From a virus, in the IMG/VR virus record IMGVR_UViG_3300028920_000073: a stretch of DNA of 64,000 bases. One strand, given 5' to 3'. Made by a program: the position numbers and the translations under genes. The notes below the pieces were generated by a model. That model was not told the DNA's origin, made no database searches, and worked only from the letters and a program-made list of their open reading frames with translations. Below are positions 7,477 through 62,993 of the stretch, piece after piece. Numbering within the stretch: the first letter of the stretch is position 1; each line of letters opens with the position of its first letter.

Positions 7477-7887
7477 ATGTTTTTAATTATAAAGAAGGAA
7501 AACGAACCTCTTATTGTTATAAGAGATGATGTTTTAATAACTGGTGTTTATGATATAAAATACACGTATACAATTAATAACTATAACACTACATTTAAAT
7601 ATAATAGTACATCTAATCTTGGAGGACCTGGAAAAATAGAAGTTGGAAAGGAAGAAACTATTGAATTTGATACTACAAGTAGAAATATAAACGTCAAAGG
7701 AAAAGTTCCAAACTTAAACATAAGTACAAACGGAAGAACATTTAGTAATGCATCTGGTGTAAACATTAAAGCTTTAAATGATGATGTTTATATAAATATA
7801 GTATCAACTGCTAAAACAAAAGCAACACATACAACAAAAGGACATCCTAATTTTAATAATGGTTTTAACGAGAGTTTCAATAGATAA
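7477..7887 (+). CDS. Hypothetical beta-rich protein
   Basis: 136 aa ORF coupled to terL. Confidence 0.65.
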   Translation: MFLIIKKENEPLIVIRDDVLITGVYDIKYTYTINNYNTTFKYNSTSNLGGPGKIEVGKEETIEFDTTSRNINVKGKVPNLNISTNGRTFSNASGVNIKALNDDVYINIVSTAKTKATHTTKGHPNFNNGFNESFNR

Positions 7888-10800
7888 TGGAAGATCTTTT
7901 ATTTAAAAAAGACAGTCTAATAACAGATGTTTTTAATCCAGAGGATTATGCTGATGAAATTATCATGCATAATATTGATCCTGGATTACTAGAAGATCTT
8001 GATGAAAAAGAAATTCCACGTCCTGCAAATTTTCTTGAGTGTACTGTTGGAAAAGATTTTCTTAATACATCAATATTACCAAGACAGTTACAAATAGCTT
8101 CTTTGTTTTTTGGTGAAATATGTTTCGATTGCTCTGATAAAGAACTGGTATACAACATGTATGATCAAGAAATAGGAGAGATAATAGAACGTATTTCTTT
8201 TTTAAGATTCGGTGTTTGTCCTAAATGTAAACAAACAAGAGCAGATATAGTTAAACAAGAATTATATCATAGACCTAACAGGTTATATGTGTTAGCTGGA
8301 CAAAGATGTGTTACAGGTGATACTTTAATACAAACTAAAGATGGTATATTTGAAATAGAAAAATTTGCAGAAAATAGAAAAGAAGGGTTTTCAGATTTAA
8401 AACTAAAAGTATTTAATGGTGATAAACTAGATACTGTAGATAAATTTTTTATAGGTAATAAAGAAAAAATAAAAACAATAAAAACTAAATATGGAACAAA
8501 AATATCTGGAACATATGATCATCCTATTAAAGTATTTGATGGTTCCTACAACTTACCTTTTAAAAAAATAAAAGATATAAAAAAAGATGATTTTATATTA
8601 ATAAAGTATGGACAAAATATATGGCCAAAAAATCCACCAAATATTTCATCTTTTAAAAGTAATTGGGATAAAAACTACGAAAAAGGTGAATGTTTAAGTT
8701 TTAAATTTGGTAAAAGTAGATTACATAATGATAAAATACCAATAAAAATTACTAAACAATTATCTAGATTGCTTGGTTATTTAGTATCTGAAGGAAGTTT
8801 TGAGGAATCAAGTTTTCAATTTGCGAACCATGATAAAAAACTTTTAAAAGATTTTAGTGATATTGCTATTAAACTATTTGGATCAAATGTTGTTAATATA
8901 CATAAAAAATATATACAAATATCTTCTACAAAAGTAACAAAATTTTTAAATTATATAGGATGTTATGGTACATCCTATAAAAAGGAAGTTCCTTGGTGTA
9001 TATTACAATCTCCAAAACTAATTGTATCTGAATTTTTAAAATCTTATTTTGAAGGAGATGGAGGTTTAGAAAAAAGAGATGTATCTTGTTCATCAGTATC
9101 AGAAAAATTAATTGATCAATTAAGAATATTGTTATTTAATTTTGGTATTTTTTCAAAAAAAAGAAAAAAGCCTATGAAATATTGGGATTATAAAAAGTAT
9201 GTTTATATTTTAAATATATCTTCTCCTGAGTTTCTTAAAATGTTTAAAAAACATATTAATTTTATATCAGATAAAAAAATAAAAAAATTAAATGAAAAAA
9301 TTAAGTGGTATGATAATAAAAGAACAAATAATGCTCCTTTCATCCATGAATATTTAAAACCTTTAAACAACTTTTTCAAAGAAACAATACAACTTTACAA
9401 AAAAATATTAATTAGTAAAAAATTAACTAAAAACATAAACAATATTGAATACTTTGATAGGGTTGGATATGAAAGTGTATTCGGAAAAAAAGATGTTTTA
9501 AGGAGAATAGGAAACAATGTAGGTTATAATAATCGTAGTTTAACAAGAAAATCATTATCTGATTTTTTAGATATATTACTAAACACTGAATATTTTTCTT
9601 TTAGATGGGATAAGGAACTAACAAAAAGAATAAAGTTTTTAATGTGGGTTAATAACAATAAAGTTCTTTTTGATTCAGTTAAAGAAATAAAATATTCAAA
9701 AGCAGTAACCTATGACTTCCACATTCCAAAAACTCATCAATTTTGGAGTAACGGATGTATATCACATAACTCTGGAAAGAGTATAGAAGTATCTATTATA
9801 TCACATTATCACACTATAAGATATCTTACACTAGAAAATAATGATGGTAAAAGAATTCCCCATTATAAAATGTTTGGTATGCCACCATCTCCTATATACT
9901 GGACGTTTACAGCTTCTACATTAAAACAAGCATATGAAAACTTATGGGACCCTTTTAGAGGTTATTATGATAATGCTCCTTGGTATAAAAATTTTAATTC
10001 TCTTTTAAATGATTATGGAAGAAAAAAAGGAGAAAAGCTTTTTTCTGATCCTCAAACTTATTTAAGTTACCATCATAAAAAAGTCGGGTTAATGTGTGAG
10101 TCTCCAAACAAGACAAGACTTCGTGGTAAAACACGTTATGGAGAATCAATTGATGAATTATCATGGTACGACCTAGTTACAGACGAAGATTCAAAACTTG
10201 GATCAGCCGAAGAAATATGCAAAGCACTAAATAACAGTTTGAGAACTTTAAGAATGAAAGCTCTTAAACAATATGAAAAAGGTAATTTTGATTGTCCAAC
10301 TGCCATAGAAGTAAACATATCTTCTCCTGCTGATGTAAACGATATAATGATGCGTAGAAATAGAGAAGCAAAAAGATCAAAATCAATGATGAGCTTCAAA
10401 TATTGTCTTTCTGGAGACAGTCTTATACAAACAGAAAAAGGTTTAAAACGTATTGATGAAATTAACAGCAATATAAAAATATTAGGTGAAACAAGGAAGG
10501 TCAATTTAAGTGAATGGCATTATACAGGTAAAAAAGATCTTTTACAAATCACAAGTGAAACAGGACATTGTTTGAATTCTTCTAAAACTCATAAAATAAA
10601 AACATTTTATAAAAATAATTTTAAATGGGTTAAAGCAAAAGATTTAAAAGTAGGAGATATAATATGTATTAATCCTTTTGAATTTACAAGAAAAAGTAAA
10701 CTCAAATTAAAATTAACACCTTTTAGATTCTTTATAGAGGAATCAAAAAATCCTTGGTCAATAACAAAAGTTAATCCTCCTAATAAAATGAGTATAGAAT

Positions 10801-41187: not shown

Positions 41188-41283
41188 TACCCATAATAGA
41201 TGTTTATATTAAAGGTTTTGTTACCGTTTTGTTTCAATGAACTAAATAAACTAAAGTTTAATTTTTATAAACACTGTAAAAAC

Positions 41284-41655
41284 ATGTTGAAGAGATCTTA
41301 TATAATTAAAAATGGTAAAATAGAACAAACGTTAAGATCAAAGAAAAAAAGAAAAACATCATTAACAAGTATACATAGACAACTGATATTAATATGCAAA
41401 GAATTAAAATTAAGATATGTAATAGAAAAAAAATTTGGTAGATATAAGGCTGATATATATCTTCCTGATTATAACATCATTCTTGAAGCAGACGGATCTT
41501 ATTGGCATAATCTAAACAAAAAAAGAGATAGAATAAGAGACATAAGATTGGAAAGAGATTTTAAAGTTAAAGTTTACAGATTTTCAGATATCGAACTAGA
41601 GAACGAACCAAGAACAGTATTTTCTAAACTAAAAGAAATAACAACAAACAAATAA
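41284..41655 (+). CDS. DUF559/Vsr-like PD-(D/E)xK endonuclease
   Basis: RYKADIYLP..IILEADGSYWH...RDRIRD..L...VYRF; start may be 41200. Confidence 0.8.
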   Translation: MLKRSYIIKNGKIEQTLRSKKKRKTSLTSIHRQLILICKELKLRYVIEKKFGRYKADIYLPDYNIILEADGSYWHNLNKKRDRIRDIRLERDFKVKVYRFSDIELENEPRTVFSKLKEITTNK

Positions 41656-53932: not shown

Positions 53933-54283
53933 ATGGGAGAAGTTGATGTATATATAAAGGTCATTAGTGATCCAGGTGCAAAGGAAAGAGGTTTCTCAAT
54001 ACTTGGAAGACAGTTTAAACCTGCATTTCCTGCAATATATACAACAAAGGCAATATCAATAATAGATGGTAGAGAAGAAACTGTAAGTGTTTGGATAATA
54101 GCAGAAAAAGAATACTTAAGAGTTGTTCCTGAGCATGAAAATTTTAGACCAACAAGTCAGTTTTGGGTTTTTCCAGCAGAGCTATGTTCACCTATTGTTC
54201 CTACTCACGGAAAATTTAAAAAGGAAGTATCACAAAAGGAACTAGATTTTATTAAAAAAATAAGAGAAGAAGGAATTAAATAA
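53933..54283 (+). CDS. Hypothetical beta-rich protein
   Basis: 116 aa upstream of tubulin gene. Confidence 0.6.
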   Translation: MGEVDVYIKVISDPGAKERGFSILGRQFKPAFPAIYTTKAISIIDGREETVSVWIIAEKEYLRVVPEHENFRPTSQFWVFPAELCSPIVPTHGKFKKEVSQKELDFIKKIREEGIK

Positions 54284-54294
54284 AGGAGATTAAC

Positions 54295-55410
54295 ATGAAC
54301 AGTCTTAACTTAGATGACTTTAAAGATATTGAGCTTGAAGAACAAGCTGAGGATGTTGTAGAGGATAATAATGAAGTAGGTGTTAAAATGGCATTTGTTG
54401 GTGGTGGACAATGTGGATGTCGTATAGCTGACACCTTTTATGATAAATTTGGATACAGAAGAGTATTATTGTTTAATACAACAAAAAAAGATATGGAAGG
54501 ATTAAAAACTCCTGAAGCTAATCAAGTTCTATCTGAAAAAACAGATGGTGCTGGTAAAGATTATAGTAAAGGAAGGAAAGCTATTGAACAATCTAAAAAC
54601 GAAGTACTTAAGGTGATGAAAAATAGATTTAAAGAAGGTATTGATAAAATTATGGTCTGTATAGGAGCAGGTGGTGGAACTGGATCTGGGACAGCTAAAA
54701 TTTTAGCGGATATATCTGAAGATTATCTATACAAACAAGGAATGGATAATGCAAAAAATAATATTGGTTTTATTGTTACGTTACCTGATAGATCTGAAGG
54801 ATCAATTGTTTTTAACAATGCATATAAAGTATTAAAAGATATTATAGGAAAAGGATACTCTCCTATAATGATATTAGATAATGCAAAAGTTACAAAAATG
54901 TTATCAGGACAAAATCTTACAGAAGCTAACAGATGGTTTATGATTAATAATGTTGCTTGCAAATTATTTGATATCTTTAACACTATCTCTGCACAACAAT
55001 CAAAATATACAAACTTTGATCCTACCGATTTAAAGGATGTTTATAATAGTGGTATAATAACTGTTGGTCTTACAAAACTTGAAAAAGTATCAAAGGATAC
55101 AGACATAGCTGATGCTCTTTATAAAAATCTTAAAAACAATCTTCTTGTAGAAGGATTAAGTATTAACAGTGCAACTCATGGAGCTGTAATAATAGCAACG
55201 GAAGAAGAAACAATTAAAAATATTCCTGCATCTTCAACAGATAACGCTTTTAACACTTTAATATCGATGATGAATGGTGGAGACACATCTAAAAAGGTTG
55301 CTTTACATAGAGGTGTATATGAAGCATCTGGATCTGGTATAACTGTTTTTTCAATGATTGGTGGATTTGAATTTCCACAAGATCGCTTAGATTCCTACAA
55401 AAGAGGTTAA
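54295..55410 (+). CDS. Tubulin/FtsZ-family GTPase (TubZ/PhuZ-like)
   Basis: T1 GGGQCG, T3 GAGKD, T4 GAGGGTGSG, T5 TLP..EG, T6 ILDN, T7 NFDPTD. Confidence 0.93.
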   Translation: MNSLNLDDFKDIELEEQAEDVVEDNNEVGVKMAFVGGGQCGCRIADTFYDKFGYRRVLLFNTTKKDMEGLKTPEANQVLSEKTDGAGKDYSKGRKAIEQSKNEVLKVMKNRFKEGIDKIMVCIGAGGGTGSGTAKILADISEDYLYKQGMDNAKNNIGFIVTLPDRSEGSIVFNNAYKVLKDIIGKGYSPIMILDNAKVTKMLSGQNLTEANRWFMINNVACKLFDIFNTISAQQSKYTNFDPTDLKDVYNSGIITVGLTKLEKVSKDTDIADALYKNLKNNLLVEGLSINSATHGAVIIATEEETIKNIPASSTDNAFNTLISMMNGGDTSKKVALHRGVYEASGSGITVFSMIGGFEFPQDRLDSYKRG

Positions 55411-55424
55411 TATTTAAATTTTTG

Positions 55425-55457
55425 TATCGGTATTTTATCGGTATTTTATCGGTATTT
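55425..55457 (+). repeat. Perfect 3 x 11-bp direct repeat (TATCGGTATTT)
   Basis: Copies at 55425, 55436, 55447, 15 nt after the tubulin stop. Confidence 0.95.
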
Positions 55458-55533
55458 ATAAAAAGATATTCGAAAAATGTCTTTTTATTATAAATACCCA
55501 ACTTTGTTCTGTTTATACAAAATTAAGGTAATT

Positions 55534-56127
55534 ATGGTAAGTCACAAACATAAAGTTATATGGATTAGAATAGATAAGACAGCAGGATCAACTTTACAAA
55601 CTGCTTTCAGAGAAGCTGGAATGTTTTGTGATGAACCTATTTGCCCTGGATGTAAAAAATTCAATAACTGTCATGATCGTGCAGATAAAATATCAAAACT
55701 TCCTTTTTGGGATGATTATTTTAAAATGACTTTTGTAAGAAATCCATTTGATAAAATTTTATCTGGTTTCTGTTTTGTAAATCAAAGACCTGGACTCAAA
55801 AGTAAATTTAAAACGTTTAAAGAATTAATAGATCATATATACACACAATACAAAGAAGGAATAAACCTTCCTATATGGTATAAGAATCAAGTTGATTGGT
55901 TAAAAGATAATAAGGGCGAAATCAAAATGGATTTCATTGGAAAGTTTGAAAGCCTTGAATATGATTACATTAATTTATGTAATATATTAGGACTTAAAAA
56001 AATAGAATTGAAAAGTATAAATAAAACAAATCATAAATCATACAGAGAATATTATGACGATGATATGATTAAAAAATTTACAGAAATGTTTGAGCCTGAC
56101 TTAGAATATTTTGGTTATAGTTATTAA
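55534..56127 (+). CDS. Sulfotransferase family 2 protein
   Basis: 5'-PSB IDKTAGSTL, 3'-PB FVRNPFDKILSGF, DFIGKFESL; ATG 55534 preferred over 55477. Confidence 0.88.
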   Translation: MVSHKHKVIWIRIDKTAGSTLQTAFREAGMFCDEPICPGCKKFNNCHDRADKISKLPFWDDYFKMTFVRNPFDKILSGFCFVNQRPGLKSKFKTFKELIDHIYTQYKEGINLPIWYKNQVDWLKDNKGEIKMDFIGKFESLEYDYINLCNILGLKKIELKSINKTNHKSYREYYDDDMIKKFTEMFEPDLEYFGYSY

Positions 56128-62483: not shown

Positions 62484-62942
62484 TTACTTGAACCAATATG
62501 GAATATTTCCCATCTTCCATTTTGCAAAACTTTTCTTTTCGCATACATAGTAATTTCTATAAGCCAAAACCGTGTTTTTTCTTTTATATTGATCAGGCAT
62601 GGCTTGTATATTAAAGTGCACGTTTCTACAAAGTAATATTTCTGGTGGATTTAAATTTTTTATAATACTTTCACACTTATGTGTTTTACCGTATCTAATT
62701 GTGTATTCCTTACACAAGCAAATCCCTAAGTCTCTTAACCATATCCAGTTCCCTAAAGAATGTCTTGTCCATTTAGCACAAGGATGATTCTTATGTGTTA
62801 ATTTATATTGAGCCGATTCCCCACAATATATTATAGCTCCACATAACAGTTGTGCTGTTTCTAGTATCATTTTTACCACATGTTTATCACAGTGGTATTC
62901 AGCACACTTAGATGGATCTTTATCAAGAACAAAAATATTCAT
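62484..62942 (-). CDS. Pyrimidine-dimer DNA glycosylase family (T4 EndoV-related)
   Basis: MNIFVLD...CDKHVVKMILETAQLL...THKNHPC..W...EYTIRYGKTH. Confidence 0.88.
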   Translation of the reverse strand: MNIFVLDKDPSKCAEYHCDKHVVKMILETAQLLCGAIIYCGESAQYKLTHKNHPCAKWTRHSLGNWIWLRDLGICLCKEYTIRYGKTHKCESIIKNLNPPEILLCRNVHFNIQAMPDQYKRKNTVLAYRNYYVCEKKSFAKWKMGNIPYWFK

Positions 62943-62993
62943 CTTGTAATTGTCTTTATAAATCAACCTCTGGATCTTCAATATATTTATTCA

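Follow-up and report, generated by a model that had tools for sequence, protein, structure and literature searches.

Two phage cytoskeletons are known: the spindles that nucleus-forming jumbo phages build from PhuZ, and the TubZ partition system of the c-st prophage. The acidic C-terminal 'knuckle' of PhuZ binds the side of the next subunit (PMC3678025), and the C-terminal tail of TubZ, which bears a partner-binding site, plays a role in filament geometry and disassembly (PMC3678025, PMC5322520). Viral sequences were not included in the 2023 survey of the FtsZ/tubulin family (PMC9871819), and the jumbo-phage and phage-nucleus reviews that we found deal with PhuZ only. Here we report on a tubulin-like gene located at positions 54295-55410 of the IMG/VR virus record IMGVR_UViG_3300028920_000073, analyzed as a stretch of 64,000 nucleotides (hereafter, the window) of a 64.7-kb contig that represents part of the genome of an uncultured large phage. 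A first-pass annotation of this window had pointed to the C-terminal tails of PhuZ and TubZ as the elements used for polymerization; the studies cited above describe them as used for polymer contacts and partner binding. The product of the gene (P0001) belongs to a large, mostly metagenomic and apparently virus-borne family, of which no published description was found in the literature searched. With a probability of about 0.6, we consider P0001 to be a self-polymerizing, GTP-dependent TubZ-like filament protein that organizes phage DNA or phage assembly during lytic growth, an acidic N-terminal arm having replaced the C-terminal tail.

The gene is a complete open reading frame (ORF) of 371 aa, as given by the ORF listing and its translation, and matches the Pfam Tubulin model (PF00091) with an E-value of 2.5e-15 (57.7 bits, cut-off 33). 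The gene, its ribosome-binding site and the principal loops of the encoded GTPase are located as follows:

54295-55410, plus strand: gene for the 371-aa TubZ-like tubulin/FtsZ-fold GTPase P0001, from ORF translation, Pfam, the AlphaFold2 (AF2) model and structural match
54283-54288, plus strand: Shine-Dalgarno sequence AAGGAG, spaced 6 nt from the ATG and sharing bases with the stop codon that closes the 116-aa ORF upstream, read directly
54400-54417, plus strand: T1 loop GGGQCG, residues 36-41, nucleotide phosphate binding, from alignments A1 and A2
54664-54690, plus strand: T4 tubulin signature GAGGGTGSG, residues 124-132, with G126-G132 invariant or nearly so
55009-55029, plus strand: T7 synergy loop TNFDPTD, residues 239-245, with D242 and D245 as the catalytic acids

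The position of the Shine-Dalgarno sequence across the end of the 116-aa ORF suggests translational coupling of the tubulin gene to that ORF. An internal start at M32 was rejected, this residue being a conserved hydrophobic position of strand S1; since the N-terminal extension is kept in homologues, the true start is the upstream ATG. Conservation was read from two alignments comprising 24 (A1) and 106 (A2) relatives, in which the loop glycines, D195/N196, N218, D242 and D245 show no or almost no variation. In particular, the T1 glycines G36, G38 and G41 are all invariant in A1, and in A2 G38 and G41 are invariant and G36 is conserved in at least 90% of the rows; D242 is likewise invariant, and D245 conserved in at least 90% of the rows, among the 106 sequences. 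The motif listing also placed the T3 loop (DGAGKD, residues 84-89) and the T6 loop (LDNAK, residues 194-198), so that T1, T3, T4, T6 and T7 are all located in P0001, as expected from the first-pass annotation, which had described the GTP-binding loops and T7 as intact. The N-x-D-x-x-D pattern of T7 is the same as in FtsZ, and the two T7 acids, D242 and D245, are inserted into the GTP site of the next subunit. P0001 is thus confirmed as a complete tubulin/FtsZ-fold GTPase with intact catalytic residues. Since the T1, T4 and T7 residues are conserved throughout the 106 sequences, both polymer faces are conserved, as selection for polymerization-coupled hydrolysis predicts, and a GTP-driven self-assembling filament is therefore the most probable reading.

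The AF2 model of P0001 (predicted local distance difference test, pLDDT, of 89.8; confident except for residues 1-18) has the two-domain fold joined by helix H7. In the structural alignment of this model, all 732 aligned tubulin-family chains had Z scores of at least 8, the best match being TubZ of Bacillus cereus (4ei7; Z 36.5, root-mean-square deviation of 2.5 Å over 330 residues), followed by TubZ 2xka (Z 35.2), CetZ2 (35.0), c-st TubZ (31.1) and FtsZ (about 30). Bacillus TubZ was ranked first by both Foldseek and VIA-align, and template modelling (TM) scores were 0.75-0.78 for TubZ vs 0.50-0.57 for the PhuZ models of BFVD. Neither structural search has a PhuZ structure among its 50 best PDB rows, which is an absence from a list and not a test. 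The top viral match in BFVD is an uncultured Caudovirales protein automatically named FtsZ. A prediction of two copies with GTP and Mg scored 0.00 and weighs neither for nor against assembly.

Beyond this conserved core, P0001 is distinguished by its two chain ends:

55372-55407, plus strand: C-terminal end FPQDRLDSYKRG, a short helix that corresponds to the opening turns of TubZ helix H11, with no tail behind it
54304-54342, plus strand: acidic-hydrophobic motif LNLDDFKDIELEE, residues 4-16, from alignments A1 and A2, the motif listing and the right-anchored profile

Only 11 residues follow the last strand, and the AF2 secondary structure places a helix at residues 362-370. As the model superposes on TubZ chains from residue 25/26 through residue 371, this helix is the stump of TubZ helix H11. 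The corresponding C-terminal stretch counts 53-102 residues in all characterized TubZ, RepX and bacterial FtsZ proteins tested. At the other end, 30 residues, 11 of them acidic and one basic by charge count, precede strand S1. Both features had been noted in the first-pass annotation, whose 28-aa acidic extension was essentially right and whose statement of an almost missing C-terminal tail agrees with the count given here. The same architecture is common in the family: among 195 family proteins the median N-terminal extension is 48 aa and the median C-terminal extension, counted past P0001 residue 360, is 15 aa, and 126 of the 195 combine an N-terminal extension of at least 20 aa with a C-terminal one of at most 25 aa. 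In lower-scoring relatives that do have a C-terminal extension, helix H11 is long as in TubZ, the tail is basic and the acidic motif is missing.

The arm motif, canonically hydrophobic-D-hydrophobic-P-[DE]-hydrophobic-P, lies some 25 residues N-terminal to the core and occurs across the family in variants such as VDIPDIPLP, FDFxMPDIPEP, IDLPELEL and LDLEQYEP; in the subclade of P0001 it lacks proline (FNFSDLDDLE or LNLDDFKDIELEE), and an acidic linker runs from it to residue 30. In members matching the strict pattern, the median distance from the motif start to the core is 26 residues. A right-anchored profile of 97 non-redundant members shows a peak of hydrophobic residues and proline at positions -28 to -22, with acidic flanks, and a second conserved stretch directly ahead of S1. 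Family arms have a median net charge of -7 and family cores a median isoelectric point (pI) of 6.6, that of the P0001 core being 8.8; the cores of C-tailed relatives, TubZ, RepX, PhuZ and FtsZ have pI values of 4.4-5.8. In the AF2 model of P0019, a member with the canonical motif modelled from 81 sequences, the arm has pLDDT values of 62-78 and no regular secondary structure, which suggests an extended peptide docked on the core. The presence of the motif at a fixed distance from the core, the inverted charges and the partial order of the modelled arm would be compatible with the different filament contact that the first-pass annotation proposed.

In-frame tandem repeats of 12 bp or 18 bp were found in the N-terminal linker regions of four loci (L014, 9913-9963; L034, 9925-9959; L008, 9913-9960; L039, 1902-1939), indicating that the arm evolves by repeat expansion; in L039 the unit coding for DIPDLP is itself duplicated. 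Six proteins (P0054, P0192, P0117, P0118, P0143 and P0026) have strongly basic low-complexity segments ahead of the acidic motif, P0054 with about nine TARKRTTTKAKAKP-like repeats and a net charge of +23 in 50 aa. Judged from composition, these segments hint at direct nucleic-acid binding by the tubulin of those phages.

A profile search of 1.84 billion representatives recovered 538 clusters at 50% identity with E ≤ 1e-30, and a word-indexed search returned 50 metagenomic homologues with 28-43% identity. The nearest ESM Atlas clusters are 87-100% viral. IMG/VR contains 65 loci on viral contigs of up to 230 kb, and three of the five largest family-bearing contigs have direct terminal repeats. 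A genome collection yielded seven short contigs from metagenome bins, four of which (L080-L082 and L085) were binned as Planctomycetota (Pirellulales, Sedimentisphaerales); this is a weak hint at the host, as short contigs may be binned phage DNA. The best sequence match in PDB is RepX/TubZ 4ei7 (1.1e-14); CetZ (6e-10) and c-st TubZ (1.6e-6) also match. Plasmid matches are limited to RepX-like proteins of Bacillales annotated as 'plasmid replication proteins', with 24-28% identity along about 90% of the protein, and the only match among 50,697 GenBank phage records searched by tblastn is gp138 of Bacillus phage G (23% identity). The Pfam model TubZ-like_C (PF22453) matches 40 of 106 family members (best 1.8e-9), P0001 not being among them even at E ≤ 1. 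None of the 106 matches TubZ_C_2, TubZ_C_3 or TubZ_C, models that in control searches recognized phiKZ PhuZ (PF22334, 1.7e-37), c-st TubZ (PF22340, 2.8e-47) and RepX (PF21493, 4.7e-91), respectively.

Phylogenetic trees were built with FastTree (59 rows) and with IQ-TREE under a site-mixture model (40 rows), using FtsZ as outgroup; CetZ, artubulin and eukaryotic tubulin sequences are not part of these trees, which limits deep rooting accordingly. In the FastTree topology the family forms one clade (support 95, starred) whose sister, with weak support (83), is TubZ-Bt plus RepX, and PhuZ, c-st TubZ, phage G and the small C-tailed group P0049-P0051 are placed elsewhere. The IQ-TREE topology keeps the PhuZ and RepX clades separate (both 100, starred). 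P0001 belongs to a starred subclade with P0002, P0110 and P0059 and lies, in both trees, outside the PhuZ clade, the Bacillus RepX clade and the c-st/phage G group. The phylogeny that the first-pass annotation had named as a check of its proposal, a distinct phage tubulin lineage, thus puts P0001 outside every characterized PhuZ/TubZ clade, and the architecture of P0001 is unlike that of any characterized relative. The proposal stands as regards these clades, the C-terminal Pfam models and the differing architecture, but not if 'distinct' is taken to mean isolated, as its sequence, its fold and its place in the trees all make the viral lineage the nearest neighbour of plasmid TubZ. TubZ may be the sister of the viral radiation or derived from it, the two trees differing on this point.

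TubZ and RepX (pXO1 RepX; B. cereus TubZ 4ei7; pBtoxis TubZ 2xka, 2xkb and 3m89) are the best match to P0001 in both sequence and structure and the nearest characterized group in both trees; they share the two-domain GTPase with its T7 loop, and the short C-terminal helix of P0001 corresponds to the start of their H11. They differ in that the 53-102 C-terminal residues forming the rest of H11 and the flexible tail are gone in P0001, and in having an acidic core and no acidic N-terminal arm, whereas the core of the P0001 family is near-neutral or basic. Moreover, they reside on Firmicute plasmids, whereas the P0001 family is found in large phages, with no adjacent TubR/TubY or conserved centromere found, and TubZ_C matches RepX but not P0001. 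TubZ of the Clostridium botulinum phage c-st (3v3t, 4xcq) is likewise a phage-borne tubulin of the TubZ kind, but it has no N-terminal extension, ends in a 53-residue acidic tail (terminating in INDFFSKYM), is flanked by tubR and tubY, carries TubZ_C_3, and groups separately in the trees with the C-tailed P0049-P0051.

PhuZ (phiKZ gp39, 201phi2-1 gp59) is likewise a phage-encoded tubulin. Its C-terminal knuckle, an acidic peptide outside the core, binds the neighbouring subunit (PMC3678025); of the functional analogies for the acidic arm of P0001 this is the closest, although it sits at the opposite chain end. PhuZ differs in its separate clade, its low TM scores, its TubZ_C_2 domain, the DNA polymerase family of its phages and the chimallin that those phages encode. 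The archaeal cell-shape proteins CetZ (4b45 and 3zid; Z 35.0 and 31.4) are close in fold and sequence, but are products of archaeal chromosomal genes with a CetZ_C domain of their own. FtsZ is similar in fold and T7 pattern, but shares only about 20% identity with P0001 and has an FtsZ_C domain, a linker and a conserved C-terminal peptide, none of which is present in P0001, where Pfam detected no FtsZ_C match.

The window is a phage fragment with a large terminase and a portal, both intein-bearing; the portal resembles those of the jumbo phages Xanthomonas PhiXhv, PaBG, Vibrio GR7B and Rhizobium RHph. The window also encodes a primase (phrog_47). Its replication block encodes PolA (PF00476, 2.3e-53) and DnaB (PF03796, 1.9e-19), each with an intein, a weakly matching sliding clamp (phrog_947, 2.4e-6), an SF2 helicase, MazG and a Dam methylase. 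The first-pass annotation had named a PolA/DnaB/beta-clamp replisome, a context that these matches bear out. Two small ORFs and the tubulin gene follow this block, all co-directional and tightly spaced, so that the tubulin gene closes the PolA/DnaB/clamp/Dam block; a sulfotransferase gene comes next, and then a convergent block on the opposite strand that starts with an epimerase. Two elements directly beside the tubulin gene deserve mention:

53933-54283, plus strand: 116-aa ORF without Pfam or PHROG family, candidate partner, with one relative beside the tubulin gene of L004 (9263-9574)
55425-55457, plus strand: three perfect tandem copies of the 11-bp sequence TATCGGTATTT, starting 15 nt past the stop codon, from pattern search

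Neither the 116-aa nor the 124-aa upstream ORF matched a Pfam or PHROG family, and an Atlas search of the upstream ORFs gave weak WYL-like or SH3-like leads only. The single homologue of the 116-aa ORF (blastp, jackhmmer) lies upstream of the L004 tubulin gene, making this ORF the only neighbour in the window with a relative next to the gene of another family member. The pattern search found the three exact copies of TATCGGTATTT nowhere else in the window, and a run of the program TRF over 63 loci found no comparable repeat array beside the tubulin gene in the 62 others; the repeats may serve as a site for protein binding. For the sulfotransferase, the ATG at 55535, with AAGGT ahead of it, is the probable start in place of 55477, as the Pfam match covers the longer ORF only from residue 19 on; this start leaves an intergenic region of 124 bp (55411-55534) that holds the repeats. 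A promoter and terminator scan gave nothing above chance, with no terminator-like site on the tubulin strand between 51000 and 56300.

Taken together, the data allow the following mechanism to be proposed. The tubulin gene would probably be transcribed with the replication genes it follows, and the resulting filaments may position or transport phage DNA or the sites where replication or assembly takes place in the infected cell, with DNA, replication factories and capsids as candidate cargoes. The C-terminal latch or partner-binding tail of TubZ and PhuZ would have been lost in the family, and the acidic-hydrophobic arm, assuming a latch or docking role, would probably dock on the less acidic core or on an adaptor. 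The phage would be large, probably virulent and not nucleus-forming. Tentatively, and as a bolder proposal that we hold to be doubtful, the arm could act in trans as a latch, the counterpart of the acidic knuckle of PhuZ or the tail of TubZ at the opposite end of the chain. If so, it would approach the neighbouring subunit from the opposite direction, implying a new lattice or new end dynamics, and the family would be a third widespread phage cytoskeleton, operating in nucleus-free large phages during lytic replication and with no adaptor gene.

Several observations weigh against the filament reading or narrow it. Residues 1-18 of P0001 have pLDDT values below 50, its arm being modelled by AF2 as disordered, and its own motif lacks the prolines of the canonical version. 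Some relatives combine the N-terminal extension with a TubZ-type basic C-terminal tail, so the family history is not a simple tail swap. The IQ-TREE topology nests TubZ, RepX, c-st TubZ, phage G and three C-tailed metagenomic members among the family (99, starred), which makes the status of a distinct clade dependent on method and rooting, and the monophyly of 20 tail-less members was merely not rejected (approximately unbiased test, log-likelihood difference 0.23, p 0.50). No neighbour is conserved family-wide across the 63 loci, and hence no cargo adaptor was identified. The 64.7-kb fragment leaves room for a chimallin gene elsewhere in the genome of this phage. Finally, the analysis establishes the fold, the catalytic residues including those of T7, the placement relative to known clades, the architecture and the conserved motif, and polymerization, the role of the arm and the cargo are inferred.

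Since the closest characterized relatives of P0001, TubZ and RepX, are partition motors, and c-st uses its TubZ in the same way, P0001 might instead belong to a type III (TubZRC-like) partition system of a plasmid prophage, with the TATCGGTATTT repeats as centromere and a small upstream ORF as TubR-like adaptor. The perfect direct repeats just past the stop codon and the position of the L004 homologue of the 116-aa ORF are in its favour. We nevertheless regard it as unlikely. The search for TubR/TubY and chimallin that the first-pass annotation had proposed found no TubR/TubY relatives, either in the window or, for 65 loci, at distances of up to 10 kb from the gene (phmmer, E ≤ 0.1; five-sequence TubR profile, E ≤ 1), TubR proteins being very divergent; iteron arrays are absent beside the gene in the 62 other loci, and P0001 lacks the C-terminal tail through which TubZ binds TubR. 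The gene lies within a lytic-type replication block; in addition, none of the five near-complete relatives has a tyrosine integrase, three have the direct terminal repeats typical of virion DNA, and ParB_N genes occur in only two of the five. A divergent PhuZ-type spindle of a nucleus-forming phage, whose chimallin gene would lie outside the contig, is very improbable. It could appeal to the weak and partial match of P0001 to the PHROG PhuZ family phrog_4733 (8.1e-7, residues 34-138 only), to the jumbo-phage-like portal and to the incompleteness of the contig, but the PhuZ clade is separate in both trees (100, starred), P0001 is nearer to TubZ than to PhuZ by TM score, and the C-terminal Pfam model of PhuZ matches none of the 106 members. 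As the first-pass annotation had stated, no chimallin-like gene was recognized: the chimallin family phrog_4795 has no match among the ORFs of at least 450 aa in the window, to which Pfam gives other identities, and was not found in eight related family-bearing records, five of them at least 90% complete, whereas the same search finds the phiKZ chimallin at 1.8e-232. The statement of the first-pass annotation that phiKZ-like phages use a different polymerase type also holds, the window polymerase belonging to family A and that of phiKZ being a divergent family B enzyme. P0001 is thus probably not the spindle of a phage nucleus, and a prophage partition system is improbable.

A role in host takeover, in which the tubulin would co-assemble with or cap host FtsZ, or its arm would compete for FtsA, ZipA or SepF, ranks behind partition and is likewise improbable in our judgement. 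The idea draws on the canonical motif VDIPDIPLP, which has D-I-P-x-hydrophobic in common with the FtsZ tails of E. coli and Bacillus (DIPAFL, DIPTFL) and so resembles the FtsZ C-terminal peptide LDIPxFL, and on the closeness of the fold to FtsZ. This likeness is short and broken by the second proline, and the motif of P0001 has no proline at all; identity to FtsZ is low, and the conserved polymer faces and T7 acids are what would be expected of a self-assembling GTPase and not of a cap. The binning of four of seven genome-collection contigs as Planctomycetota, to our knowledge mostly devoid of FtsZ, also speaks against it as far as this weak host hint goes. The least plausible alternative, to which we give hardly any credence, is a non-polymerizing GTPase or a decaying gene that has kept only the fold. 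It can point to the lack of direct evidence of assembly; the frame, however, is intact and preceded by a strong ribosome-binding site, and the nucleotide-binding and T7 residues are kept across hundreds of clusters at 26-40% identity, indicating purifying selection on both polymer interfaces.

The self-assembling filament therefore remains the reading we prefer, and its interest lies in the distribution of the family, which comprises hundreds of clusters spread over unrelated large phages without chimallin. If these proteins polymerize, virus-encoded tubulin organization would be common in large phages and not a speciality of nucleus-formers. The combination of a fixed-spacing N-terminal peptide, the lack of a C-terminal tail and a charge-inverted core would also constitute a natural experiment on the control of assembly by tails.

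Neighbours were compared by blastp clustering of the ORFs within 3 kb of the gene at the 63 loci, with Pfam searches on representatives. Recurrent neighbours exist within sub-clades only (a ClpB-like ATPase, a 75-aa ORF, a 630-aa protein and a large terminase), and none of them is common to the window. In the largest sub-clade (L041-L045 and L056, including the P0040 locus), the tubulin gene, at position 10001, comes after a ClpB-like double AAA+ ATPase (at about 7487-9895) and an intein-bearing DNA polymerase III alpha, and is followed by the 75-aa ORF and the 630-aa protein, the latter with a faint DUF4214 match. As the window has PolA and this sub-clade DNA polymerase III alpha, the type of adjoining replisome varies by sub-clade. 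The comparison of neighbours agrees with a tubulin gene that is transferred singly.

Eight family members (P0056, P0063, P0080, P0084, P0169, P0177, P0181 and P0182) have lengths of 800-980 aa, and their profile matches fall into two parts, in most cases with the break close to profile position 131, in the T4 region. At this break, P0056 has an intein with a LAGLIDADG homing endonuclease, so that phage tubulin genes join the PolA, DnaB, helicase, terminase and portal genes of the window as targets of inteins. P0060 and P0064 have an AAA+ lid (AAA_lid_14) and further, unassigned sequence after the tubulin core, and P0175 has a glycosyltransferase ahead of it; these may be true fusions or gene-call artefacts. 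The window also encodes a DUF559/Vsr-like endonuclease (41200-41655, plus strand; 7.8e-6) and a pyrimidine-dimer DNA glycosylase (Pyr_excise; 62484-62981, minus strand; 5.7e-7).

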